In this document: in pieces, positions 4,879 through 26,788 of the stretch | Position numbering within the stretch: the first letter of the stretch is position 1 | How the letters are laid out: each line of letters opens with the position of its first letter | Program-made: the position numbers and the translations under genes | The notes under the pieces: model-generated | Databases searched by the model: none | What the model saw: the letters and a program-made list of their open reading frames with translations, nothing else | Told to the model about the DNA's origin: nothing | NCBI GenBank assembly: GCA_045863855.1 | Contig: BTVV01000071.1 | Location: forward strand, 1-30,596 | From: Planctomycetota bacterium | GTDB lineage: Bacteria; Planctomycetota; SZUA-567; H5-PLA8 | Direction: 5' to 3' | DNA length: 30,596 nucleotides

Positions 4879-5056
4879 GGCCTCATATCCTTCGACGGGC
4901 TTGCGTACAAGACGGCTTGAATTGCTGCGCCTTCGTACTTAATCGAAACGGTCAAGTGCGATCCTGTTCAGCCGCAGGCGATGAGATATAGTCCACAATT
5001 CGAGATCATCTAATTCGCTAATCTACTTCGTAGGAAACCCAAGGTAAAGACGAATC

Positions 5057-13167: not shown

Positions 13168-14622
13168 TCATTCCGCGGCTTGCAGTCCGGCTTCGCCGCC
13201 GTGGTCCAGCAGTTCTTGCAGGATCGCCCCGGCCTCCTTCACGACCGCTTCGGTGGGGGCGTCGGTGGTAAAGAGCGCCGAGAGCGCCCAGTTGGCTTTG
13301 GCGTACAGGGCCGGCTGGCGCGCCTCGTAAATCAAACGCCCCGCGCTCAAGGTCCGCTCGAACTCCGCCGTTATCGCATCGCGTTCCCAAGCCGCCGGAA
13401 GCGCGGCCAGCCGGTAGCCTTGGGCCGACAGATCGCGAGCTGCGTCCAGGCCGGTGAGCGCGCGCAAGAGCGTCCAGACGCGCGGGTCGTGCTCCGCGCG
13501 CTTGTGCACACACAGCCCTTCGCTGAAAAAGACCGTCGCTCCGGGCGCCGGGAATGCGCCCCGGCATTCCGCCGGGCCGCTGGGCAGTGGCGCCACACTC
13601 CAGGCTTCGCCTTCCGGACACGTGGCCGGTTCGGAACGCAGCCGCGCCGCCAGGTGCCCGCCCCAGATCAGCATCGCCACTTCGCCGCGCGCGAAGCGTT
13701 CGAAGGCGGAATGGGAGCCTTCGCCGCGAATGCGCAGGTCGGCCGGGCCCAGGACATACAGTTCGCGGTAAAAGGCCAGCGCCCGTAGCGTGGGCGGCGT
13801 GTCGAGCAGGCACTGCCGGGCCGCATGATCCCATAGCCCGCCACCCGACTGCCAGAGGTACGGCATCAGGTGGCTGATCGCCGGGACGATGCCCAAGCCC
13901 ATCCGCCCGTGCTGGGAATCGTTCAGCGCCACGGCCGCCGCGCGCAAGTCGTCCCAAGTCCAGGCGGCCGAAGGTTCGGCCAGCCCCGCCGCACGAAATA
14001 GATCGCGCCGGAAGTACAGCACGCACGCGGCAAAGCTGCGCGGCATACCGACTTGGCGTCCTTCGTGGCGAAAGAGTTCTAACGCTTGGGGATGCGGGCA
14101 GTCTTTTTCGGGCAGCGCCGCGGTATAGGCGTCCAACGGCGCCGCGCGTTGGGCTACGGCCCAGGAGTGATTCCCGATCGTCCGGAAGATATCGGCTTCG
14201 CCGGCCCGGTCGCCGTCCTCCACCCGCACGCGGATCTCGGGATGCTCGCGCGCGAAGCGTTCCAGAATCGCGCTGACTTGCAGGTGGTCCATCGGCGGAA
14301 ACGGCCCGCCCAGCGTCACCTCGTCCCGCGATGCGGCCGCGGAGGCCGCCGAGGCCGGCTTCTCTTTAAGGAAGGTGCCTTTGCCTTGGCGGCGTTCGAG
14401 GACGCCTTCGTGCGCCAGTTCGCGCAGGGCGCGTGTCACCGTCGGGTAGCTCATCTTGTGCGTGCGCATCAGTTCGCGCTCGCTGGGTAAGCGCGCGCCG
14501 GGCTGGAGGTTCTGTTCGCGGATGGACGTGCGCAGCAGGTCCATCAGTTGGAGATACAGCGGGCGCGGATCGGGCGGCTCTTTGCGGCGGGGCATCTTGG
14601 GAACGGACTTGGGACGAGCCAT
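13168..14622 (-). CDS. GntR-family transcriptional regulator fused to a sugar-type solute-binding (SBP family 1) domain
   Basis: wHTH 'PLYLQL...LR..I....LQPGARLPSERELM....SYPTVTRALREL..EGVL.RRQGKGTF'. SBP motifs 'F...HPEI.V', 'GMP.......LYFRRDLF..AGL..P...WTWDDL' and 'F.RGEVAM'. No signal peptide. Confidence 0.9.
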   Translation of the reverse strand: MARPKSVPKMPRRKEPPDPRPLYLQLMDLLRTSIREQNLQPGARLPSERELMRTHKMSYPTVTRALRELAHEGVLERRQGKGTFLKEKPASAASAAASRDEVTLGGPFPPMDHLQVSAILERFAREHPEIRVRVEDGDRAGEADIFRTIGNHSWAVAQRAAPLDAYTAALPEKDCPHPQALELFRHEGRQVGMPRSFAACVLYFRRDLFRAAGLAEPSAAWTWDDLRAAAVALNDSQHGRMGLGIVPAISHLMPYLWQSGGGLWDHAARQCLLDTPPTLRALAFYRELYVLGPADLRIRGEGSHSAFERFARGEVAMLIWGGHLAARLRSEPATCPEGEAWSVAPLPSGPAECRGAFPAPGATVFFSEGLCVHKRAEHDPRVWTLLRALTGLDAARDLSAQGYRLAALPAAWERDAITAEFERTLSAGRLIYEARQPALYAKANWALSALFTTDAPTEAVVKEAGAILQELLDHGGEAGLQAAE

Positions 14623-14730: not shown

Positions 14731-15315
14731 CTATCGTTTGCGCACGATCGAGCAGCCGCCTTCCGGAGTCTCGGAGGGATCGACGATCTGCTTGTTGAGC
14801 AAGGCTTTAAGCGCATTTTCCGTATAAGCTTTCTGCGCGCCCGCATGGAGCCGCCCGCGGTAACGCAGCTTGCCGTCGCCGTCGATGACGATCGCGGTGG
14901 TGGTCGTCGCGATGCGGAACAGGTCGGCCACTTTGGCGCCTGGATCGAGCAAGACGGGCAAGGACAAGTCTTTACGGTGTTCGAGAAAACGCTTCACGTC
15001 GGCGGCGCTGTCGTCGGCGTTCGCGTCCAGCGCGTAGATCGCCGCTTGAGCCTGGTAAGTCTTGGCCAACTTCGCGATATCGGCTTCGAACTGTCGGCAA
15101 CTGCCGCAGTAGGTGCACCAGAAGACCAGCACCAGCGGGCGTTTAGCTTCGCCCTGCAACTCGCGCCAAGAACGTTCCGCGCCGTCCAAGTCGGCGATTT
15201 TGAAGTCCGGCACGTCCGCGCCAATCGCGAGCTTGGCCGATTCTCCGGCGTGAGCCATGCCGCTTAGCAGCACGAGTGCCGCGATCCAGAATCGAACGGG
15301 CCTGAGTTTCCGCAT
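14731..15315 (-). CDS. Exported redoxin (AhpC/TSA, thioredoxin-fold) protein
   Basis: Signal peptide ending AHA, 'IGADVPDF', 'LVFWCTYCGSC', 'PVLLDP', 'IDGDGKLRYRG' and C-terminal 'GCSI'. Confidence 0.9.
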   Translation of the reverse strand: MRKLRPVRFWIAALVLLSGMAHAGESAKLAIGADVPDFKIADLDGAERSWRELQGEAKRPLVLVFWCTYCGSCRQFEADIAKLAKTYQAQAAIYALDANADDSAADVKRFLEHRKDLSLPVLLDPGAKVADLFRIATTTTAIVIDGDGKLRYRGRLHAGAQKAYTENALKALLNKQIVDPSETPEGGCSIVRKR

Positions 15316-15451
15316 CGTGGGGCTCCGCAGGTGCAGGCGATCAGCGTACTCCAACTTCCGTTCAGGAGCCAGCTTGCGATCGGGAGCGGCGCGGGCTGTC
15401 ATTCGCGCGCGGCATCCGGTAAGCTGCCTGCGGTACTCGGACGCCTTACCC

Positions 15452-16561
15452 ATGCGCTTTCTTTATTCCGATTGGGATCGCCAGAAGGAGCGTCAGGAAC
15501 AGCTCCTTAAAGATCTCTTTAAGCTCTTCCGTGAACTGCTCGCCAAGACCGCCGGCGACGCGGAGCAGGCGCTGGAGTGGCTCGATAAGATCGCGCAGCG
15601 TTACAACATATGGGGCCAGGATTTAGACCTCGAGAAGTTCAAGAAGCTGCTGGAAGGCGACGGGCAGATCAAGCGCGATGGGCCTGCGGGGAAGGCTTCG
15701 CTGACGCCGAAGGGCGAGAAGGCGCTGCGGCACGAGGCGCTGACGGAGATTTTCCGCAACATGAGCGGCGGAGCGGCCGGGGATCACCGCAGCCGCGCGA
15801 CGGGCCCGGGAGTCGAGCGCCAGACCGAGGTGCGTCCGTATACGTTCGGGGACGATCTGTTCAGCATCTCGCCGACCGATTCGCTGAACAATGCGGTGCG
15901 GCGCAGCTTGGGCGAGGGGCAGAGCGAGATTTCGGTAACCGAAGAAGACTTGGCGGTTTACGAGACCGAATTAATCGCGGCGTGCGCCACGGCGCTGCTC
16001 GTCGATTGCAGCCACAGCATGGTGCTCTACGGCGAAGACCGCATGACGCCGGCGCGCAAGGTGGCGATGGGTTTGGTGGAGCTGATCCAGACGCGCTTCC
16101 CGAAGGACAAGCTGATCGTGATCGCCTTCGGCGACGACGCCGTGGAGGTTCCGCTAAAGGAAGTTCCGTATTTGAGTTACGGGCCGTACCACACGAATAC
16201 GAAAGCGGCGATCGAGATGGCGCGGAAGCAGTTGCTCCGCGTGCGCAGCCCCAACCGGCAGATCTTCCTGATCACCGACGGAAAGCCCACGGTGCTCGAC
16301 GAGGACGGCCGGCGGATGATGGATTCGGGTCCGTGGTTGAATCCGCGGATCGTGAACCGGACGCTGGACGAAGCCGCGCAGTGCCGGCGCAAAAACATTC
16401 CCATCACTACCTTTATGGTAACGGACGATCCGGTGCTGGTGCAGTTCGTGGAAGACCTGACCGCGATCAACCACGGCCGCGCGTACTACACGGGGCTGGG
16501 TAAGCTGGGTCAGTTCTTGTTCGTGGACTACGTCCGCAACCGCCGCCGCAGCGTGCGGTGA
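15452..16561 (+). CDS. von Willebrand factor A (vWA) domain protein, Mg-chelatase-associated type
   Basis: MIDAS motif DCSHSM, 'LYGEDR.TPARKVA..L', 'GPYHTNT', 'QIFLITDGKPT', 'TLDEA' and 'G.AYY'. ATG at 15452. Confidence 0.92.
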   Translation: MRFLYSDWDRQKERQEQLLKDLFKLFRELLAKTAGDAEQALEWLDKIAQRYNIWGQDLDLEKFKKLLEGDGQIKRDGPAGKASLTPKGEKALRHEALTEIFRNMSGGAAGDHRSRATGPGVERQTEVRPYTFGDDLFSISPTDSLNNAVRRSLGEGQSEISVTEEDLAVYETELIAACATALLVDCSHSMVLYGEDRMTPARKVAMGLVELIQTRFPKDKLIVIAFGDDAVEVPLKEVPYLSYGPYHTNTKAAIEMARKQLLRVRSPNRQIFLITDGKPTVLDEDGRRMMDSGPWLNPRIVNRTLDEAAQCRRKNIPITTFMVTDDPVLVQFVEDLTAINHGRAYYTGLGKLGQFLFVDYVRNRRRSVR

Positions 16562-17029: not shown

Positions 17030-18328
17030 TTATACCGCAGGCGGCTTTTCGGGAACCTCATCGGGCTCGCGGCGAATCACCGCGCCGAGCGAGCGGAGCT
17101 TGCCTTCGAAGTTCTCGTGGCCGCGGTCGACGTGGTAGATGCGGCGGACGTGGGTTTCGCCCTGGGCGCAGAGGCCGGCGATGACGAGCGCCGCACCGGC
17201 GCGCAGGTCGCTGGCCATGACGGGCGCGGCTTGGAGCGGGGTGCCGCCGAGGACGACGCAGGTGTTGTTCACGCGTAAGATCTTGGCGCCCATACGCTTA
17301 AATTCACTGACATGGTGCAGGCGGTCGGGGAAGATGCTGTCGGTGAAGACGCTGGCACCGCGGCCCATGATCGTCAGGGCCATCATCTGCGCTTGTAAGT
17401 CCGTGGGGAATCCCGGGTAAGGCAGGGTGGTCAGTTCCACTTCGCGGATCGGTTCGGCGCCGGAGACAGCGACGGTTTTGCAGTTGCGGTTCAAGCCGAC
17501 ACCGGCCTCGCGGAATTTATCGAAGACCGCTTCTAAGTGTGTGGGATCAATGTTCTTAAAGAGGACTTCCCCGCCCGTAGCGGCGGCGGCCATCATCAGG
17601 GTTGCGGCTTCGATACGGTCGGGAATCACGTCGTGCGCGCAGCCTTCGAGACGCCGCACCCCGCGGATGGTCATGCGGTGCGAGCCCGCGCCGTCGATGG
17701 ACGCGCCCATGGCGATGAGGAAGTTGGCCAGATCGACAATCTCGGGTTCGACGGCGGCGTGTTCGATGACCGTGGTGCCGTCGGCTAAACAGGCTGCCAT
17801 CATGACGTTAGCGGTACCGAGGACGGTGCTGCCGTTGGGTCCGCCGAGGTAGATGTTGGCGCCGCGGAGGCGTTTGGCTTTGGCGATGACGTAGCCGTGT
17901 TCGATTTCGATCTCGGCGCCGAGCGCTCGGAAGCCTTTGAGATGGAGGTCGACCGGCCGGTCGCCGATCGCACAACCTCCGGGGAGGCTTACCTTTGCAT
18001 AACCGCGCTTGGCCAGGAGCGGCCCCAGGACGCAGAAGCTGGCGCGCATCATGCTGACCAGTTCGTAGGGCGCGGTATTGCAGTCTTCGCTGAGCAGTTT
18101 GGTGTGCAGGCGACCGGATTTATCGCGTTCAATCTGCATGCCTAGGACGCCGAGGATCCGGGCCAGGACGTCGACGTCGCGCAGACGAGGGACGCCGCCG
18201 AGGTCGCAAGGTGTTTCAGCCAAAAGAGTTGCGGCGAGAATCGGCAGCGCCGCGTTCTTGGAACCGCTGACGGTGACTTCGCCGTGGAGCGGATGACCGC
18301 CTTCGATGACGAGTTTTTCGAGCGACAT
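17030..18328 (-). CDS. murA: UDP-N-acetylglucosamine 1-carboxyvinyltransferase
   Basis: 'GSKNAALP', 'MRAS', 'LPGGCAIG.RPVDLH' (active-site Cys), 'PDRIEA', 'PYPGFPTDLQ', 'SDLRAGA', 'HVDRG'. Confidence 0.98.
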   Translation of the reverse strand: MSLEKLVIEGGHPLHGEVTVSGSKNAALPILAATLLAETPCDLGGVPRLRDVDVLARILGVLGMQIERDKSGRLHTKLLSEDCNTAPYELVSMMRASFCVLGPLLAKRGYAKVSLPGGCAIGDRPVDLHLKGFRALGAEIEIEHGYVIAKAKRLRGANIYLGGPNGSTVLGTANVMMAACLADGTTVIEHAAVEPEIVDLANFLIAMGASIDGAGSHRMTIRGVRRLEGCAHDVIPDRIEAATLMMAAAATGGEVLFKNIDPTHLEAVFDKFREAGVGLNRNCKTVAVSGAEPIREVELTTLPYPGFPTDLQAQMMALTIMGRGASVFTDSIFPDRLHHVSEFKRMGAKILRVNNTCVVLGGTPLQAAPVMASDLRAGAALVIAGLCAQGETHVRRIYHVDRGHENFEGKLRSLGAVIRREPDEVPEKPPAV

Positions 18329-18517
18329 GGCCAGGATGCCCCCTTTGGACCGTGAAAGGGGAATCGTCCACTAAAGGGTTGAGCTTGAAGGAATTGGAAG
18401 AATGGTAGGGGTTTGGGCGGGGCGTTGGGGCCGGATAACGCTTTGGATATATAAATCCATTCACGAATTGATTTTATAGGTTTTATGGGAATTGGGTGCG
18501 CGTTTGGGTAGAGCGGT

Positions 18518-18553
18518 GTAATACAAACAGGACAAGTAATACAAGTAGAACAA
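18518..18553. repeat. Four tandem 9-mers in the murA/gntR divergent region, possibly an operator array
   Basis: GTAATACAA-ACAGGACAA-GTAATACAA-GTAGAACAA. The first unit is part of the palindrome TGTA-A-TACA (18517-18525). Confidence 0.6.
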
Positions 18554-18638
18554 TAAGGGTTTCGGGGACCGAAAACTGCGCAAATCGGAACATTGAGCGC
18601 ACATTCTGCCATATCACTGCCATAAAAAGGGGTCTGCC

Positions 18639-19790
18639 TTGGGACGGGTCATTTTCGAACAACACGGCCAACTGCACCTCCAAGTTCGCGACCGGATCGT
18701 GAACATGATCCTCCAAAAAGGGCTGCGCGGCGGCGATCCGTTGCCGACGTACCGCGATCTGAGCCGGATGCTGAACGTTTCGCTGGTGACGGTGCAGCGG
18801 GCGATGAAGGAACTGAGCCGCGAGGGGCTGGTGGCGGGCCATCCGGGCCGCGGGACGGTGGTGGCGCGGGAGGTATCGGGCGAAGGTCGGCGGCTGACGC
18901 AGATCGGGCTGGTTTTCTTCTGTTCGAAGCAGTTGCTCTTCGGATCGGCGTACCTGATGGACCTGTTTCGCGGCTTGATGCTGGCGGCGGATGCGCGCGG
19001 CTCGGACGTGCGGATCGTTTCGATCAAGAGCGAAGGGAGCCTTTCGCCGAAGCAGATCGCGGCGGGGGGCGTGGACGGCGTGATTTTATGCGCGGTGGCG
19101 AACGACGCGTACTTGCGGCAGTTCGACGCGGAAGGGATTCCGACGGTGGCGGTGGATACGTTCAACGCGGACGTGAAGCTGGATTACGCGGTGGCGGACA
19201 ACGCGGCGGCGCTGCGGCAGACGGTGGACCACCTGGTGCGGCTGGGGCACCGCCGGATCGGGTACATCGACGGCTGGTCGACGGATACGGTGGCGGGCTC
19301 GGGCGCATCGCGCGATCCGGTGATCGATTCGTCGGACGCTCAGGAGCGGCGCGGCGCATTCTTCGCGGCGATGGGTTCGCACGGTCTGCTGGACGGTGCG
19401 ACGCTGTACCCGGTGCACGTTCGGGCTCCGCAGGAGACGGTTTCGCGCGCGGTGGACGCGTGGCTGGATTCGAATCCGCGGCCGACGGCGGTGATCGGGT
19501 ACGACGCGGGGTACGCTCAACCGTTCGCCGAAGCATTGGAGGAGTTCGGCCTGCGCATGCCGGAGGACGTCTCGTTCGCGGGCGCGGTGGCGGCCGGCAC
19601 GGCGCTGCTGGACGGGCGGGTGATCTCGACCAACAAGATCGATTTCGTGGACTTGGGCCGGCAGGCGGTGGCGTTGCTGGAACTGCGGCATCGCGAGGGG
19701 CGTTCGACGCCGCCGCGCGTTTACCGCGGCAGGCCGGAGTTCGTGGCGGGGCATACGGTGGGGCCGGTAATGGGAGAGGGGATGAGTTAG
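18639..19790 (+). CDS. GntR-wHTH / LacI-type periplasmic-binding-fold transcriptional regulator (AraR-like architecture)
   Basis: TTG start after an AAGGGG SD. 'GDPLPTYRDL...LNVSLVTVQRAMKEL..EGLV...PGRGT', followed by 'VDGVIL', 'IPTVAVD', 'HLVRLGHRRIGYI', 'PTAVI' and 'GLRMPEDVS'. Confidence 0.92.
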   Translation: MGRVIFEQHGQLHLQVRDRIVNMILQKGLRGGDPLPTYRDLSRMLNVSLVTVQRAMKELSREGLVAGHPGRGTVVAREVSGEGRRLTQIGLVFFCSKQLLFGSAYLMDLFRGLMLAADARGSDVRIVSIKSEGSLSPKQIAAGGVDGVILCAVANDAYLRQFDAEGIPTVAVDTFNADVKLDYAVADNAAALRQTVDHLVRLGHRRIGYIDGWSTDTVAGSGASRDPVIDSSDAQERRGAFFAAMGSHGLLDGATLYPVHVRAPQETVSRAVDAWLDSNPRPTAVIGYDAGYAQPFAEALEEFGLRMPEDVSFAGAVAAGTALLDGRVISTNKIDFVDLGRQAVALLELRHREGRSTPPRVYRGRPEFVAGHTVGPVMGEGMS

Positions 19791-19864
19791 TAAAGAGTAA
19801 GCGCGGCAAACTTCAAACGGCAAGAACCAAACAAACGGCAGGCAAGGCCATAAGGAGCGAATGT

Positions 19865-22054
19865 ATGCGCGGGCTACTGCGGACCGGTCGGGCTCTCGGA
19901 ATCGCGCTGCTGCTGGTGCTGGGAGCGGCGGGTACGGCGCATGGGGCGGCGCCGGGGTCGGGGACGGGGGCGGTCTTAAAAGTCGAGAACGGGAGCGTCC
20001 AGGTCGATGCGTGGAAGGCCGAGGATTTCGGCTGGGTTGCGCGGAGCTTGGCGAAGGTACCGGAACTGAAAAGCGCGAACCCGCGCTTCACGTTCTGGGC
20101 GTTGGGGAACGGGAAGAAGTCGGTGCTGGCGATGCTGTGGGACGAATCGGGCGGGACGGGCACGGGTTACGACACGCTGTACTTGGACAAGAACTTCAAC
20201 GGCGATCTGACCGAGGAAGGCGAGAAGCACGCGGGCGCCGCGGAGAAGCACACGTACGAGATCAAGGACCTTAAGGAAGCGGACGGCGAAGGGACGTTCT
20301 CGATGAAGCTGGTGATGGAGAAGGGGAACTACCACTGGCAGTCGGGCTTCCACGCGTCGTGGCCGAATCCGTCGGACGCGGGTAAGCGCGTGGGCTTCGG
20401 GGTGGGCCTGCTGCCGGGGAACCTGCAGATCCGTTCGGCGCCGAAGCCGGAGGACGCTCCGGTGTACCGCCTGGGCGGGCTGCCGACGCCGATGCTGTCG
20501 AAGCAGGTGCGCGAGCACAACAAGGACCGCTGGATTCCGGTGTATCCGGGCGAGACGTTCGCGGAGTGGACGGCCGGCGCGGAGGCGGGGGTGAGCATGG
20601 CGGTGGCGGTGATCGGGAGCGCTCCGGAGAACAACCTGCGCTTCTACCATAGCCAAGCGCCGGGCGGTCTGCCGGTGGTGAGCCTGCGCGTGCACGGTCC
20701 GGACGGTAAGGCTTCGGAAGAGATCGCGTTCACGGGCGGGTGCGGCTGCGCGGGCTCGTTCGGTCAGAACCTGCTGATCCCGCGCCGCGTCGCGCCGGGT
20801 ACGCATACGCTGGTGATCCGGCTGAACCGTCCCGATTGGTGCGGCGGGAAGGCCGAGTACCTGTATCCGGTGACGGTGCAGAATCCGGACTTCGGCAAAG
20901 CGTACGAGGATCCGGCCTACGTGGCGCTGAAGGCGAAGTTCGGCGGGACGAACGCGAAGTTCGCGAGCCTGCGGCGGGCGGTGACGCCGGAGCAGCTTGC
21001 GAAAGCCTTCCCCGACGAGCCGCTTTTGGGCGGGCGGGTGCGGGACAACTACATGATGAGCAACAGCATGCACTGGGACAGCAAGATCGCGAACAACGGG
21101 ACGGATCCGTACCTCGAAGTGGGGCAGAAAGCGGGGCTTAACGCGCCGAACCGCGCGTTGATCCAGTTCGATCTGGCGGGCCTGCCGAAGGGCGCGAAGC
21201 TGCTGGGCGCGTATGCGCGGTTCACGCTGGTGAACGTGCCGTGGTCGGGGGCGAAGGAAGACGCGGCGGTGGAGGCGTATGCAGTGCGCCGCGCGTGGAA
21301 CGAAGTTCCGGAGAACAACCTGTACTGTTCGTGGTACGGCCCGCTGTACCGCGGCAACAAGAACCGCCCCGAAGCGCAAGACATCGTCTTCTGGAAGCAG
21401 GGCGGCTGCGAAGATCCGCAGGAAGACCGTTATCCGGACGCGGCCGGGAGCTTCTCGGTGGCGAACTTCCCCGCCAAGGCCAGCGCGAAGGGCGCCGCCG
21501 ACGGCGAACGCTTCCGCATGGTGGCGATGGATATCACCGCGACGGCGCAGAAGTGGCTGAGCGGCGAGATCGAGAACCACGGGCTGGTGCTGGTCTTCAA
21601 AGGCAGCGGCGGCTGGGCTCCGATCTGCAGCAGCGAGCATCCCGAGTACATCTTCCGCCCGACGCTGGTGCTGGCGTACGAAGGCGGCGAGATGGTCGGC
21701 GCGCTGACGAAGCCGCGGGGCGAAGACCTGGACCTGGCGCGGGCCGAAGCGCAGAAGCGCGGCGTGCCGGTCGCGATCAAGTTCTACAGCCCGACGTGTT
21801 CGGTCTGCGTGAAGGCCAACAAGACCACCTTCGCCGACAAGACGGTCAAGGAGACGCTTTCCAAGCAGGTGGAGTTCGTGAGCCTGAAAGTGGAGGATTA
21901 TCCGAAGCTGGCGCAGGACCTGGGCGTGGGTTCGGTTCCGACGCTGGTGGTCTTGAACGCGGACGGCGCGACGGCGAAGGCGGCGTTGGGTTCGGATGTG
22001 CTGCTGGATGGGAAGGCGCTGGTGGTGAAGTTGGGGGAGGCGGTAGGGAAGTAG
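19865..22054 (+). CDS. Secreted multidomain protein: unknown N-terminal domain with a CxC motif, DNRLRE/CBM96-like domain and C-terminal thioredoxin (CSVC)
   Basis: TAAGGAG SD and a signal peptide ending AHG-A. 'YDTLYLDKNFNGDLTE' and 'GGCGCAG'. DNRLRE-type motifs 'RALIQFDL..LP.GA....A', 'W.E', 'DIT...Q.W......NHGLVL' and 'SSE.....RPTLVL.Y'. Trx motifs 'FYSPTCSVC' and 'GV.SVPTLVVL'. Confidence 0.85.
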   Translation: MRGLLRTGRALGIALLLVLGAAGTAHGAAPGSGTGAVLKVENGSVQVDAWKAEDFGWVARSLAKVPELKSANPRFTFWALGNGKKSVLAMLWDESGGTGTGYDTLYLDKNFNGDLTEEGEKHAGAAEKHTYEIKDLKEADGEGTFSMKLVMEKGNYHWQSGFHASWPNPSDAGKRVGFGVGLLPGNLQIRSAPKPEDAPVYRLGGLPTPMLSKQVREHNKDRWIPVYPGETFAEWTAGAEAGVSMAVAVIGSAPENNLRFYHSQAPGGLPVVSLRVHGPDGKASEEIAFTGGCGCAGSFGQNLLIPRRVAPGTHTLVIRLNRPDWCGGKAEYLYPVTVQNPDFGKAYEDPAYVALKAKFGGTNAKFASLRRAVTPEQLAKAFPDEPLLGGRVRDNYMMSNSMHWDSKIANNGTDPYLEVGQKAGLNAPNRALIQFDLAGLPKGAKLLGAYARFTLVNVPWSGAKEDAAVEAYAVRRAWNEVPENNLYCSWYGPLYRGNKNRPEAQDIVFWKQGGCEDPQEDRYPDAAGSFSVANFPAKASAKGAADGERFRMVAMDITATAQKWLSGEIENHGLVLVFKGSGGWAPICSSEHPEYIFRPTLVLAYEGGEMVGALTKPRGEDLDLARAEAQKRGVPVAIKFYSPTCSVCVKANKTTFADKTVKETLSKQVEFVSLKVEDYPKLAQDLGVGSVPTLVVLNADGATAKAALGSDVLLDGKALVVKLGEAVGK

Positions 22055-22071
22055 GCGTTCAAAAGTAATGA

Positions 22072-22092
22072 GTGAACGGTGAACGGTGAACG
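22072..22092. repeat. Perfect heptamer tandem repeat (GTGAACG)x3
   Basis: Read directly from the intergenic sequence. Confidence 0.8.
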
Positions 22093-22108
22093 GATTCTGG
22101 AGCTGGGG

Positions 22109-23764
22109 ATGCGCATAGGGTCGAAATGGATGGTGGCGGCGGTGCTGGCCGGTTGCTCGGCTTCCGGTTGGGCGGCCGATGAGTCGGCGGAGGCGCTGGC
22201 GGAGTTCGGGAAGCGGCTCGAGGTTCCGGTGGCGTCGGCGCCGAAACCGAACGCCGAAGCGGCGGCATGGTTCGCGCAGGAAGCTCCGCCATCGGGGACC
22301 GTGACGGCGCTGGATTTGACGGGCTGGGCGGGCCCGTTGGGCTTCGCGCACCTGGACGGGAAGCCGGATGCGCCGGCGGTGCGGACGGAAGGGTACTTCG
22401 CGTGCGACGCGGAGGCGCTGTACGCGGCGGTGCGGTGCTTCGATCCGGACTTGGAAGCGGCGCCGGCCAAGGCGGGCGCGCGGGACGGGAACGTCTGGCA
22501 CTCGGACAGCGTGGAGTTGATCGTGCTGCCGGGGCTGGAGGTGTCGTCCTCGTACTATCATTTCGCGGCCGATGCGTCGGGGACCTTGTACGACGCTCGC
22601 GTGAACGACGCGAGCTGGCAGTCGAACGCGACGGTGCGCGTGGCGCGCGGCGAGGGGTATTGGACGGTGTTCTTCCGTGTGCCGCTCGCGGATCTGGGCG
22701 TGACGGCGGCGAGCGCTCCGGCTGTGTGGCGCGCGAATCTCCATCGCGCTCGGCCCAAGCGCGGCGGCGCGGCGGCGCAGGATCTGGCCTGGTCGCCGAC
22801 GGGCGGGCGGAGCAACCACGTGCCGGGGCGTTTCGGCGTGTTGCATCTGGACGGCTTGGGGCGGGGGCCGGACGCGGCGGCGTTGCGGGCGTTCATGGCG
22901 CAGAGCGAGCGGTTGGAGATCGTCTTCCGCCAGGATTTCGCGGCGAACCGGGACGGATTCGGCGGCGGCGCGGTCGTGCCGGCCGCGGACGGCCAGCCGG
23001 CGAGCGAAGGGTTCTTGCGCGTTTCGAACGCGCGGAGCTTGGCGTGGGAGCGGAGTTTCGCGGCGCCGCAGGGGATTCGGATCGCGTTCGCGTACCGGAC
23101 GGCTCCGGGGCAGCACGGCTTGGCGGTGCACGGAAGCGGGAGCGTGGTGCGCGCGTGCCGGCCGGGGCTGATCGAAGTCTTCGGGCGCGGCCTCAAGGCG
23201 GCTCAGAGCACCTGCCAGGACGCCGACGGGCAGAGCCGCAGCTTCGACCTGGGCTTCGACGCGTTCCGCTTCAAGCGCCCGTACGGGCACTGACAGCAGT
23301 CGAACATGCCCCCGACCCCGGGGGCGGAGTGGGCGGTCGCCCGCTTCAACCTCGACGAGATGTACAGCAACGACACGCACACCAAGGTGCTGGATCCGAA
23401 GCAGCAGTACGAGCGGCTGAGCTTCGTGCTGAACGGGGAATTGAAGCCGGAAAGCGTGATCGAATTGGACTGGGTGGTGGCCTGGCGCGGGAAGGACGCC
23501 GAAGCGCCGGACGCTCCGTCGGGCTTCGCGGTTGCGCGCGAAGGCGAGACGATGCGCTTCGCGTGGCGCGCGGCGGCGGATAACTTGCAGGTGAGCCACT
23601 ACGAATTGCTGCGCAAGGACGGCGCGGAGTGGAAAGCGTTCACGCTCGCGACGGGCTGCGCGACGCGCTTGCCGGCGGCGGGTTTGGGCGAAGGTCCGTT
23701 CGCGGTCCGCGCGCTGGACGCGGCAGGGAACGCGTCGGAGGCGGTGGAGCTGGCCGTGCCTTGA
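22109..23764 (+). CDS. Exported CBM9-like + beta-sandwich + Fn3-like protein with one in-frame TGA at codon 395 (candidate selenocysteine; alternatively a nonsense-disrupted gene)
   Basis: ATG 22109 with GGAG SD and a signal peptide/lipobox LAGC. CBM9-like 'D...LY.AV.C.D', 'RDG.VW..DSVEL', 'YYHF', 'WTV..RVPL..LG', 'WRANL.R' and 'WSPT...NH.P.RFG'. ORFs 22079-23293 and 23306-23764 are in the same frame, separated only by TGA plus 4 sense codons. C-terminal Fn3-like 'P.APSG', 'W.AA.DN..V..Y' and 'VRALDAAGN.S'. Confidence 0.75.
23308..23325 (+). promoter_or_regulatory. Candidate bacterial SECIS hairpin
   Basis: GCCCCCG-ACCC-CGGGGGC, a 7-bp GC stem starting 14 nt after the in-frame TGA. If the closing pair opens, the loop begins with G23314, 20 nt after the TGA. 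Confidence 0.5.
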
Positions 23765-23772
23765 AGGCTTGC

Positions 23773-23803
23773 GCCGATCGCGTCCTTACAGGACGCGAAC
23801 GGC
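23773..23803. repeat. Intergenic inverted repeat (REP-like or terminator hairpin)
   Basis: GCCGATCGCGTCCT-TAC-AGGACGCGAACGGC, with 13 of 14 arm positions paired and no U-tract. Confidence 0.6.
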
Positions 23804-23943
23804 TGGGGCGCACCGCGAGGTAAACGGCGATAGGCCTTTGCCAATGAGGGAAAACGTTCCCGCCCGAGATAACATGCTTAAAAAAGCCGCATAGAACACG
23901 TGCAATGCCACGCGAGTTTATTTCATGGCCGAACGCATTCGTA

Positions 23944-23973
23944 TTGAAATGACGGGCGAAAAGCCTCCATAAT
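23944..23973 (+). promoter_or_regulatory. Putative sigma70 promoter
   Basis: TTGAAA-18 nt-CATAAT upstream of the 24050 gene. Confidence 0.45.
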
Positions 23974-24049
23974 AGCGCCTGTCGCGGAGGCCGGCCGGCG
24001 GGAGGTTCGCCGGCAGCCGGTTATGCCATCCGTCCGAGAGGTATCCCGC

Positions 24050-24673
24050 ATGAAGAAGCACGAATCGACGTGGGCGGTGGCTCGTTACGTCATTCTGGGC
24101 CTGGTGGTGCTTGCGGCGGGCGGCGCTTGGGCGCTTTGGGGCGCCGATTTCCGGGCATATTACGCGCGTGAAGCGTTGACGAAAGCGTTCGAAGGGCGCG
24201 AAAAGGAATTTTACGATCAGGCAGAGGGCATCTTTAAGGAGCATGCCGGTTCGGGAAAAGTTCCGGCGGATGCGCACCGCGCGGGCAAGGCGGTCTGGAT
24301 CCGCGCGCGGCTGATGCCGCGTTCGAATCGCTTCGAGATGAACCTCGATATCGATCCGTCGGCCGGGCACCTTGCGGAGGAACTGCGCGCCGAGCGTCCG
24401 GAAGACGTGCGTTCGGTGGTGTTGTTGTATCCCAAGTCGGGTCAGGTGGGCGAGTACGTGCCCAAGGACGGTTCGAGTACAGCGGTCCCTCAGGCGGCTT
24501 ACGAAGAACGGGTGGATGTGCGGATCGTGGATCTGCAGAAAAAGTCGCTGCTTGGTCACAAAGTATTCACCTTCAGTCCCAAGCACGAGATCACGCAATC
24601 CCGCGAGCGTTTCGAGGTGCTGGATATGGGGCAGGTGCTGGCCTGGTACGCGAGTTTGCCGGAGGCTCCGTAG
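24050..24673 (+). CDS. Hypothetical membrane-anchored protein
   Basis: GAGAGGT SD, ATG 24050 and an N-terminal TM helix 'YVILGLVVLAAGGAWALW'. No family recognised. Confidence 0.75.
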   Translation: MKKHESTWAVARYVILGLVVLAAGGAWALWGADFRAYYAREALTKAFEGREKEFYDQAEGIFKEHAGSGKVPADAHRAGKAVWIRARLMPRSNRFEMNLDIDPSAGHLAEELRAERPEDVRSVVLLYPKSGQVGEYVPKDGSSTAVPQAAYEERVDVRIVDLQKKSLLGHKVFTFSPKHEITQSRERFEVLDMGQVLAWYASLPEAP

Positions 24674-24778: not shown

Positions 24779-26788
24779 ATGCCGACGGTTGCGGAACTTC
24801 CGGCGCAGGGTCTGACGGGGCGCTCGTTGCGGCGCTATGTCGAGGCCAAGCTGTTGCCGCACGTCGAGACGCCGGCGCAGTACGCGGGCGGCGAGTTGAA
24901 CCAGATCGTGAAGGATCACGCGGCGGCGCGGGTGAAGGTGGCGCTGGCGTTTCCCGACACGTACGCGATGGGGATGTCGAGCACGGGCTACCGGATTCTG
25001 CATCACGTCTGGAACCTGCGCGCCGATTATTTGTGCGAGCGGGTCTTCGCGCCGTGGCCGGACATGGAAGCGCGGATGCGCGAGCACGGCGTGCCGCTCT
25101 TCAGCCTCGAGACGTACACGCCGATCCGTTCGTTCGACGTGCTGGCGTTTTCGTGCGCGTACGAGATGGGCTTCACGAACATCCTGACGATGCTGGACCT
25201 GGCCGGTATACCGCTGAAGGCTGCGGAGCGGACGCTGGACGATCCGTTCGTGATCTTCGGCGGGCATACGTCGTTCGCGCCGGAGCCGGTGGCGGATTAC
25301 ATCGACGCGTTCTGCATCGGCGAAGGCGAAGAGCTTGCGCTGGACGTGACGGAGAAGCTGGACGAACTGAAGCGCGCGGGCCTGCCGCGCGAAGAGATCC
25401 TGCTGCGCTTGTGCCGCGAAGTGCCGGGCGTGTACGTGCCGCGCTTCTACGGTTTTCAATATTTTCCGGACGGGAGCATCGCGGACGTGGTGCCGCTGGC
25501 CGCTCGGGTGCCGTTCCCGGTGAAGCGGCGGATCGTGCACGATCTGGAGAACGCTCCGTTCCCGACGAAGCAGATCGTTCCTTACGTCGAAGCGGTGTTC
25601 GACCGGTACAGCATCGAGATCATGCGCGGCTGCGTAAACGGTTGCCGCTTCTGCCAGGCGGGGATGATCACGCGGACGCAGCGGCAGCGCAGCGTCGAGA
25701 AGGTGATCGAGCTGGCGAAGAGGGGCTACGAAGAGACGGGCTACGACGAGATCGGGCTGCTCTCGCTGAGCAGCAGCGACTACTACGGGATCACCGAGCT
25801 GGCGACGCGGCTGAACGACTACTTCGAAGAGAAGGGCGTGAGCATCGGTTTGCCGAGCCTGCGCATGAACGAAGTGCTGGCGACGCTTCCGAAGGAGCTG
25901 GCGCGGGTGCGCAAGGGCGGGCTGACGATCGCTCCGGAAGCCGCGACGGAGCGGATGCGGAACATCATCAACAAGCCGGTGAAGGACGAGCATCTGATCG
26001 CGGCGGTGCGCGAGGCGTTCAAGCACGGCTTCGACCACGTGAAGCTTTATTTCATGCTCGGGCTGCCCGGCGAGACGGACGCGGACCTGCGCGCGATCGG
26101 GGAGTTCAGCGACAAGATCAGCCTGCTGCGGACCGAGCTGGGGAAGAGTCCGGCGAAGGTGAGCAGCAGCGTGAGTTCGTTCGTGCCGAAGGCGGGGACG
26201 CCGTTCCAGTGGGCTCCGATGCTGACGCGCGAGGAATGGCGCCGGCGGCAGCAGTTGATCGTGAAGAGTTCGCGGATCAAGGCGGTGCGGGTGAAGGTGC
26301 ACGATCCGGACGTGAGTTACCTGGAAGGCGTATTTTCGCGCGGCGACCGGCGGCTGGGGGCGGCGATCGAGACGGCGTGGCGGGCCGGCGCGCGCTTCGA
26401 CGGCTGGGACGAGCACCTGAAGCTGGAGATCTGGAACGCGGCGTTCCAGGCGCACGGGATCGATCCGGACTGGATCGCGCTGCGCGAACGGCCGCTGCAC
26501 GAGATTCTGCCGTGGGTGGCGGTGAACGACACGGTGAGCGAGCAGTTCCTGAAGCGGGAGCTGAAGCGCGCGGAGCAGGGTCGGATCACGGAGTCGTGCG
26601 CGGACACGAATCCGGCGAAGGAAGCGCCGTGCTTCATCTGCGACGGGTGCGAACGCAGCCCGCTGTGGGACAAGAAGGAAGAACTGCTGGCCGCTCCGGT
26701 GCGCGGCGAGGTTCGCGACGCCCGGTACGCGAAGAACTGGCAGCTCACGCCGGGGGCTCACGCGGCGGCGGCGGGTTCGGGCGACTGA
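24779..26788 (+). CDS. B12-binding-domain radical SAM protein (TIGR03960-like)
   Basis: 'VE.PAQY.GGELN', 'AFPD.Y.MGMS', 'CERVFAPWPD', 'PLFSLET', 'EIMRGCVNGCRFCQAG', 'SLSSSDY', 'GLTIAPEA', 'KLYFMLGLPGET', 'FVPK.GTPFQW', 'GARFDGW.E' and a C-terminal C...CxxC.C cluster. Confidence 0.9.
   Translation: MPTVAELPAQGLTGRSLRRYVEAKLLPHVETPAQYAGGELNQIVKDHAAARVKVALAFPDTYAMGMSSTGYRILHHVWNLRADYLCERVFAPWPDMEARMREHGVPLFSLETYTPIRSFDVLAFSCAYEMGFTNILTMLDLAGIPLKAAERTLDDPFVIFGGHTSFAPEPVADYIDAFCIGEGEELALDVTEKLDELKRAGLPREEILLRLCREVPGVYVPRFYGFQYFPDGSIADVVPLAARVPFPVKRRIVHDLENAPFPTKQIVPYVEAVFDRYSIEIMRGCVNGCRFCQAGMITRTQRQRSVEKVIELAKRGYEETGYDEIGLLSLSSSDYYGITELATRLNDYFEEKGVSIGLPSLRMNEVLATLPKELARVRKGGLTIAPEAATERMRNIINKPVKDEHLIAAVREAFKHGFDHVKLYFMLGLPGETDADLRAIGEFSDKISLLRTELGKSPAKVSSSVSSFVPKAGTPFQWAPMLTREEWRRRQQLIVKSSRIKAVRVKVHDPDVSYLEGVFSRGDRRLGAAIETAWRAGARFDGWDEHLKLEIWNAAFQAHGIDPDWIALRERPLHEILPWVAVNDTVSEQFLKRELKRAEQGRITESCADTNPAKEAPCFICDGCERSPLWDKKEELLAAPVRGEVRDARYAKNWQLTPGAHAAAAGSGD

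Follow-up and report, generated by a model that had tools for sequence, protein, structure and literature searches.

Known bacterial selenoproteins such as FdhA, SelD, MsrA, and SelW-like proteins share a TGA codon on a Cys column, a hairpin with an early loop G 16 to 37 nucleotides (nt) downstream, and a genome with selA, selB, selD, and selC. A catalogue of prokaryotic selenoproteins comprises 119 families in its Table 1, most of them, in the parts of that source covered here, thioredoxin-like or known redox enzymes (PMC13188914). Among its entries, SaoB, SaoX, the TonB-dependent receptor FCYXU, and TsoA-C/X/Y were found by the logic also used below, in which proteins end early at a Cys column. 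Some of them are exported, and selenocysteine (Sec) is perhaps a metal ligand in them. Here, we analyze a 30,596-nt contig (BTVV01000071.1, the window) from a Planctomycetota metagenome bin (GCA_045863855.1), which carries a gene of 551 codons broken by a single TGA at codon 395. We propose that this read-through gene very probably encodes an exported selenoprotein built on carbohydrate-binding module (CBM)-like domains.

Compared with FdhA, SelD, MsrA, and SelW-like proteins, the read-through gene encodes no thioredoxin or oxidoreductase fold around Sec and no CxxU or UxxC motif, but instead the motif YGH-U-QQ.NMPP, followed by an atypical GACCCC loop and a tandem second hairpin. None of SaoB, SaoX, FCYXU, or TsoA-C/X/Y has CBM or Fn3 domains in Table 1 of the catalogue (PMC13188914), and their NCBIfam models do not match the protein or its homologs. 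The same predicted folds are seen in CBM9 (1i82 and 4jpq; Z, 17.5 to 19.4), CBM22/CBM4 (4xuo, 2w5f, and 3p6b; Z, 13), and Fn3 (1k85; Z, 11 to 12) modules, and like ones in the CBM and Fn3 tail of GH85 enzymes (2vtf). In contrast to these, the CBM-like domains of the Sec protein are only 10 to 18% identical to CBM modules and fall under Pfam cutoffs, it contains approximately 60 extra residues holding Cys369, His394, and Sec395, and it has no glycoside hydrolase domain.

Table 1 of PMC13188914 holds no CBM-based, Fn3-based, or YGHU-motif family, and the parts of that paper covered do not mention carbohydrate, CBM, fibronectin, or Planctomyc. No such family was found by the terms searched in the covered parts of BSepDB (PMC13326102, with its family Table S2 outside the scope), deep-Sep (PMC12013277), or SelCysML (PMC13745706). 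A literature search gave no paper linking a selenoprotein with Planctomycetes and carbohydrate binding, or with DNRLRE, and the two entries for selenocysteine with carbohydrate-binding modules look unrelated by title. Either family could be listed by Haft and Tolstoy 2025, whose families are included in the catalogue table and in NCBIfam, or by Deng et al. 2026. In agreement with the sequence-only reading, which did not recognize the family, neither NCBIfam 20.0 nor Pfam has a model over the Sec region, and no selenoprotein model matches the protein or seven homologs. The set of Deng et al. is said to consist of unvalidated candidates from 44,000 metagenome-assembled genomes. The comparisons support well a new family of selenoproteins built on carbohydrate modules, and a gene of a second candidate family adjoins it. 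The new family would place Sec on an exported CBM scaffold and so point to the active site in a protein that is anonymous in all other respects. Since gene callers split such genes, it also suggests that the selenoproteomes of uncultured Planctomycetota are undercounted. Direct expression of the Cys forms offers a cheap test, while the tandem hairpin with its atypical loop provides a test case for SelB recognition.

The in-frame TGA and its column in homologs

The sole internal stop of the frame is codon 395 of 551, in the context ...FKRPYGH*QQSNMPPTPGAEWAVARF..., i.e., PYGH*QQSNMP, just as the sequence-only reading described it. By eye, GGAG precedes the true start and the ATG at position 23306 lacks a Shine-Dalgarno-like purine run; in addition, the upstream piece carries an export signal and the downstream piece carries none, so that both earlier claims about the downstream product stand. 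The TGA is real, neither an error nor a recoded codon. It stands unchanged in contigs of two studies that are not marked as the origin of this DNA, one (X7) with 0 differences over 23164 to 23713 and the other (X5) with 7 differences over 22050 to 23410, all listed and none at the TGA. This comparison covered 4 of the 24 listed runs, and the differences of two of them, X13 and X19, are listed in part. A low-depth contig of the RNA run X19 crosses the TGA with 8 differences (not all listed) and was not used for expression.

The codon could be read as DNA in five distinct genomes, with duplicate records counted once. It is TGA in three of them, namely, the source genome, G002 (same genus, 88% identical), and G216 (another class, 59% identical over the central domain), and TGC in two (L033/L038 and L034). 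Relative to G002, we observe 10 synonymous and 5 nonsynonymous changes in codons 396 to 463, and 17 and 10, respectively, in codons 464 to 551. Conservation is thus equal on the two sides of the TGA, and both halves are under purifying selection. Protein databases yielded 188 proteins, mostly CBM9-like or Fn3-like only. Seventeen of these homologs (11 clusters at 90%) continue past the motif, and their residue at the column is Cys in 16 and Ser in 1; 15 terminate exactly at ...YGH (14 clusters at 90% and 12 at 70%, including near copies of the three TGA genes). A further 15 begin at the Met of MPP four codons on, of which one, from a Cys cluster, was dropped. Trp, Arg, and Gly never occur at the column among the homologs, 14 clusters, with identity as low as approximately 37%, break at the very column where Cys is invariant, and the stop is TGA wherever DNA was seen. 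A Cys or a conserved TGA at this position is what the sequence-only reading would have expected of selenocysteine, and Trp or Arg what it named as contrary. In two further homologs, P0176 and P0177, the similarity ends a little ahead of the site, and they belong to neither class.

A FastTree phylogeny of 21 proteins (P0170, P0071, P0085, and P0034 left out) places one Cys protein among the YGH-ending ones (support, 0.83) and eight Cys proteins in a weak clade (0.62), which points to at least two switches between Cys and Sec, in either direction. The names given for homologs are Planctomycetota or Phycisphaerae, with the annotation hypothetical apart from one glycerate dehydrogenase-like fusion. 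This protein, P0170 (624 amino acids [aa]), is a Cys member without a CBM9-like domain and is either a fusion or an assembly artifact. P0034, with its Ser, is a natural, inactive-looking control. The family is rare and patchy, being found in 4 of the 401 genomes of a phylum sample. Further profile searches matched 1/25, 2/62, 1/1, 2/401, 0/48, and 0/1 genomes without a new member, one of the two matches among the 401 being weak and partial (E value, 5e-5). A protein-pattern scan of metagenome contigs gave a single, unrelated Fn3-type locus and therefore no further DNA of TGA copies.

Two overlapping long open reading frames (ORFs), 22267 to 23583 (+) and 19976 to 23599 (-), were rejected as shadows of the high GC content, since it is the Sec frame that homology and synonymous change track. 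A promoter and terminator scan found nothing beyond shuffles and no terminator-like site on the plus strand past the TGA, and Rfam had 0 matches within 18300 to 24100.

Features of the window, with the evidence on which each row rests
Feature	Positions	Strand	Basis
Read-through gene, candidate exported selenoprotein	22109..23764	+	551 codons, homology, purifying selection on both halves vs G002
In-frame TGA, inferred Sec395, motif R.YGH-U/C-QQ.NMPP	23291..23293	+	Homolog column and DNA copies
Hairpin 1 (candidate SECIS), loop beginning with G 20 nt past TGA	23308..23325	+	Minimum free energy fold
Hairpin 2 (stem of 9 bp), GGUC loop 41 nt past TGA	23326..23347	+	Minimum free energy fold
Export signal: basic N terminus, hydrophobic stretch	22109..22174	+	Read from sequence
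CBM9-like (DOMON-type) domain, residues 38-250	22220..22858	+	Structure alignment
CBM22/CBM4-like jelly roll, residues 265-463, split by TGA	22901..23497	+	Structure alignment
Cys369, conserved candidate Sec partner	23213..23215	+	Homolog alignment
Asp422-x-His424 (with Met418, Asn421), invariant	23372..23380	+	24/24 rows, P0034 left out
Fn3 domain, residues 464-551	23498..23761	+	Structure alignment and hmmsearch
GntR helix-turn-helix/LacI-type sugar-binding regulator, head of three-gene block	18639..19790	+	Pfam GntR E 7e-15, Peripla_BP_3 E 3e-19
Upstream gene, ~729 aa (start 19856 or 19865)	19865..22054	+	Domain matches, homologs
GGCGCAG motif (CGC) in upstream gene	20735-20755	+	
C-terminal thioredoxin CSVC in upstream gene	21797-21808	+	

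Selenocysteine machinery and downstream hairpins

The source genome, a bin of 287 contigs (6.9 Mb, 94% complete), encodes the entire machinery that the sequence-only reading asked about. We find SelA (E value, 3e-133), tRNA-Sec (70.7 bits; anticodon TCA), the SelB wing domain, and SelD, the latter with its own in-frame TGA in CAG*AAK. The genes selA, selD (with its TGA), and that for tRNA-Sec lie together on a small contig (G000 C231; L001, L002, and L039), with selB on C192, and ARAGORN calls a second tRNA-SeC on another contig. SelA and tRNA-Sec were also found in G002 and G216. A genome-wide scan with our own script for ORFs joined by a TGA returned 123 candidates, 16 of them with a hairpin resembling a selenocysteine insertion sequence (SECIS), and ranked the read-through gene second by coding score. 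The candidates ranking alongside it are, judging by their motifs, MsrA-like, SelW-like, and heavy-metal-associated (HMA) UxxC proteins, and their loops begin 20 to 22 nt past the TGA, as in the read-through gene. Further in-frame TGA candidates lie at C24:45219(-), C4:108705(-), C3:15006(+), C151:11330(+), C41:33140(-), C92:13560(-), and C29:53433(+). By motif, these are presumably MsrA-like (GUFW), SelW-like (CGMU), and HMA-like (UGGC), in addition to a FNPD*VVAKLDC protein, two thioredoxin-like UGPC proteins, and one CGQU protein.

The 60 nt from the TGA fold into two adjacent hairpins at -34.8 kcal/mol (z, -4.2), with none of 200 shuffles as good. A second folding comparison gives z values of -3.35 for the source gene, -1.72 for G216, and -0.32 and -0.07 for two Cys genes, which fold no better than shuffles. 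Hairpin 1, which the sequence-only reading had already located, is present in the minimum free energy fold with 7 bp and loop ACCC, or with 6 bp and loop GACCCC. The bSECIS model expects a loop of 3 to 9 nt, a stem of 4 to 16 bp, G in the first two loop positions, a spacing of 16 to 37 nt, and a minimum free energy of ≤-7.5, as given in the covered part of PMC13188914. Our own script (not bSECISearch) finds that hairpin 1 fits this model if its closing G-C pair is open (GACCCC, 20 nt, -13.6 kcal/mol). The G early in the loop that the sequence-only reading names for bacterial SECIS hairpins in general is present in this opened form, but the loop departs from the usual G[G/U]; likewise, the spacing is like that of the other candidates of the genome while the loop pattern differs. 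In G216 a hairpin of other sequence and register, GCCGCCC AGUUU GGGCGGC, occupies the same place, where its protein reads PPSLGG and the source protein PPTPGA, so that in both TGA lineages a loop stands 20 to 21 nt past the TGA. The AGUUU loop of G216 fits the G[G/U] pattern and so does GGUC of hairpin 2 in the source, whose core TGGGCGGTCGCCCG recurs in G216. Hairpin 2, the stronger of the two and not described by the sequence-only reading, may possibly be an auxiliary or alternative SelB site. Tandem hairpins past the TGA occur in both selD of the source genome and the read-through gene, and in each the second one has a loop of the GGU type (at 32 to 33 nt in selD and 41 nt in the read-through gene). 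The low-GC Cys copy L033 keeps, at 5040 to 5050, the GCG GTC codons of the GGUC loop without the stem, by remnant or by chance.

Several observations weigh against Sec decoding or limit the evidence for it. The GA.. loop of hairpin 1 is unlike the G[G/U] of both the model and the other candidates of the genome, and hairpin 2 sits 4 nt outside the model range. The pattern is described as holding "mostly" in the covered part of PMC13188914, and in that of BSepDB a canonical element is given for 87.4% of entries (PMC13326102). The hairpin alone is modest evidence, as 117 of the 1,161 ordinary TGA stops of the genome (approximately 10%) pass a loose SECIS-like test, or approximately 1% a tighter test set afterwards. 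An equally good hairpin is given by 1.7% of synonymous recodings of the source peptide (n = 3,000) and by 3.2% of those of G216, where 37.5% pass the loose test and the region folds at z -1.7. The 18 codons after the TGA are identical in G002, the longest identical run of the gene, although this is not significant (P ~0.07). GG opposite the PP codons occurs in 9/14 split-type and 0/10 Cys-type proteins, which counts in favor of Sec but is a post hoc comparison drawn from related sequences. In addition, most YGH-ending proteins are known as protein only, the DNA covering three TGA genomes of two independent lineages. Finally, SelA and tRNA-Sec were not found in either TGC genome, which is weak evidence because both genomes are incomplete (one, 88%). 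Against these points stand the Cys column, the conserved TGA, and the machinery. The computational checks suggested by the sequence-only reading all turned out in its favor, and we regard it as very probable that UGA395 is decoded as selenocysteine to give one exported protein of 551 residues.

Predicted domain architecture and possible readings of the site

Structure alignment with VIA-align against 48,161 chains, with which Foldseek agrees, was applied to an AlphaFold2 model built from an 18-row alignment with U modeled as C (pLDDT, 85.6; pTM, 0.74; residues 1 to 19, pLDDT of <50). The export signal offers two cleavage options, LAG-C16 (lipobox-like) or GWA/AD (signal peptidase I-like), the homologs being mostly of the latter type. 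Residues 38 to 250 align to 4jpq with a Z of 19.4 (190 residues aligned; root mean square deviation [rmsd], 3.0) and to the CBM9 structure 1i82 with a Z of 17.5. We name this domain CBM9-like only, because its score with the Pfam model CBM9_1 (PF06452) is under the cutoff (E value, 0.006; 16.8 bits against a gathering threshold of 23.4; 21.4 for P0010), though the fold match is clear. At least nine other CBM9-like domains are present in the genome (C12, C20, C147, C9, C144, C24, C4, C1, and C97), none with the Sec domain. Residues 265 to 463 have no match in Pfam and align to CBM22 4xuo (Z, 13.4; rmsd, 2.8; 137 residues aligned); ESM Atlas returns galactose-binding-like clusters at 0.88 to 0.91, as leads only. 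The Fn3 domain reaches a Z of 12.0 to the Fn3 domain of ChiA74 and 11.1 to 1k85, to which hmmsearch gives an E value of 2e-7. The beta-sandwich across the stop suggested by the sequence-only reading is thereby recovered, as are its CBM9-like and Fn3 domains, but the central domain is a separate CBM22/CBM4-like jelly roll.

Approximately 60 residues of this middle domain have no CBM counterpart. Secondary structure and comparison with P0111, which lacks the insertion, suggest that residues ~346 to 405 form an insertion holding Cys369, His394, and Sec395. In the predicted fold, Sec395 sits in a loop between the strands at 385 to 391 and 409 to 414, and the jelly roll requires both halves flanking the TGA; a stop there would therefore halve the beta-sandwich. 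R351, P352, G359, G361, D373, R390, Y392, G393, H394, M400, P401, P402, W408, M418, N421, D422, and H424 are among the residues invariant in 24/24 rows. Asp422 and His424 are possible metal ligands or catalytic residues, judging from this conservation. The Cys residues 26 and 45 codons upstream that had been put forward as partners of Sec are Cys369 and Cys350, and only the former is conserved as such: 20 of 23 homologs have Cys in the column of Cys369 and the remaining three have one ≤2 residues off, while Cys350, conserved in only 9/23, was rejected. In P0034, C369, H394, C395, and H424 are lost together, and Asp422 is gone too.

The account that we tentatively favor, at somewhat less than even confidence, is an exported Sec395/Cys369 redox site with His394 that is re-reduced by a thioredoxin-bearing neighbor. 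SelB and tRNA-Sec would decode UGA395, guided by the hairpin or hairpins just 3′ of it. Sec395, in the predicted loop of the insertion on the jelly roll between the CBM9-like and Fn3 domains, would act as a redox nucleophile assisted by His394, forming a selenenylsulfide with Cys369 as it cycles outside the cytoplasm. This redox site would be anchored to glycans or to the cell surface by the Fn3 and CBM-like domains, and re-reduced by the upstream CxC/thioredoxin protein wherever that protein is co-encoded. The conservation of Cys369, its joint loss in P0034 with Cys395, His394, and His424, and a thioredoxin-domain neighbor whose gene order recurs in a distant low-GC genome argue for this site. 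Three points weigh against it: C369 and U395 lie 26 residues apart without a CxxU motif, the G216 copy lacks the upstream gene as a neighbor, and that gene occurs without the Sec gene in several genomes. Neither CxxU nor UxxC occurs anywhere in the sequence, and the fold is a jelly roll, not a thioredoxin.

The same Sec gene may possibly encode a soft-metal site instead, with Sec395 as an exported ligand for Cu, Zn, Hg, or similar, together with His394, Asp422, His424, and perhaps Cys369, Met400, and Met418, for scavenging, detoxification, or a catalytic metal. These residues are invariant or nearly so and are lost together in P0034, and a role of Sec as a metal ligand is considered possible for several families that are not oxidoreductases, e.g., SaoB and SaoC, as far as the covered part of the catalogue goes (PMC13188914). 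The three-gene block, however, holds a sugar-type regulator and a thioredoxin-domain neighbor and no metal transporter. It is unlikely that the protein is an enzyme acting on glycans, with a His-Sec pair or a Sec-held metal as its catalytic center on a CBM-like scaffold. All three domains match modules of carbohydrate-active enzymes, a sugar regulator of the GntR/LacI type stands at the head of the operon, and the genome has at least nine further CBM9-like matches; glycosidases with a Cys nucleophile do exist (GH127/GH146), in another fold. Yet Pfam, NCBIfam, and fold searches reveal no catalytic glycosidase domain, and a shared fold shows no function.

We consider it very improbable that the TGA is a true stop, leaving either a pseudogene or a split gene whose products (394 and 152 aa) reassemble. 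Gene callers do report two ORFs, an in-frame ATG stands 4 codons past the TGA in all members, and P0176 and P0177 indicate that broken copies occur. The break nevertheless falls exactly on the invariant Cys column in 14 clusters and is always TGA in the DNA copies seen, the TGA genomes carry sel genes, both halves are conserved, the break cuts one beta-sandwich, and the export signal is on the upstream piece alone. Although the genome is a 287-contig metagenome bin, a sequencing or assembly error or a TGA read as Trp or Gly in a recoded genome has next to no probability, given the same TGA in independent assemblies and in other species, the fact that long ORFs of the genome end in TGA more often than in any other stop (1,161 TGA, 948 TAA, and 813 TAG), and homologs with Cys but never Trp or Gly.

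Gene neighborhood and a second candidate family

The upstream gene of the three-gene block encodes a protein with an N-terminal hydrophobic signal, a CGC motif, a DNRLRE domain, and a thioredoxin CxxC. The order regulator, CGC protein, and Sec protein is also seen in G002 and in the distant low-GC L033, but not in G216; L046 and L033 are loci with this order. In other (short) loci, the regulator and the CGC gene are paired with no Sec gene nearby. The upstream family is matched in 9 of the 401 genomes. In five of its loci a TGA stands in frame at the CGC motif or next to it (homologs include L053, L054, L055, L059, L066, and L080), and the upstream gene therefore appears to be the Cys-bearing version in a second candidate family of selenoproteins. 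The G091 copy reads GCP*GG and also looks frameshifted upstream, while a G002 copy (on C1) reads AGAC*SG against AGACCSG in a 59% identical paralog in G001. The copies of G216, G335, and G438 read FRDY*GG and form one clade, in which the pairing of TGA with Cys is approximate because identity is 24 to 28%. All five TGA loci carry a hairpin 18 to 20 nt downstream with a loop of the textbook type (AGUU, CGUGC, or AGUUC), and SelA was found in G091, G335, G216, and G002. NCBIfam assigns DNRLRE alone and no selenoprotein model to the three proteins searched. The AlphaFold2 model of the upstream protein has a pLDDT of 72, with the CGC motif at <50, and Foldseek is clear for the thioredoxin domain only.

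A wider and doubtful proposal is that the two proteins, both of undescribed families, form an exported selenium/sulfur relay tied to glycan use under a sugar-sensing regulator, with Sec chemistry on or at extracellular polysaccharides. If true, this relay of a CxC/CxU, DNRLRE, and thioredoxin protein and a CBM9-CBM22-Fn3 His-Sec protein would be the first selenium-dependent carbohydrate-active system.

Ordinary genes nearby in the window encode an AhpC/TSA redoxin with CxxC (14731 to 15453, -), a B12-binding radical SAM protein (24779 to 26788, +), a member of the MurA/EPSP-synthase family (17030 to 18328, -), and a GntR protein with a solute-binding domain (13168 to 14622, -).

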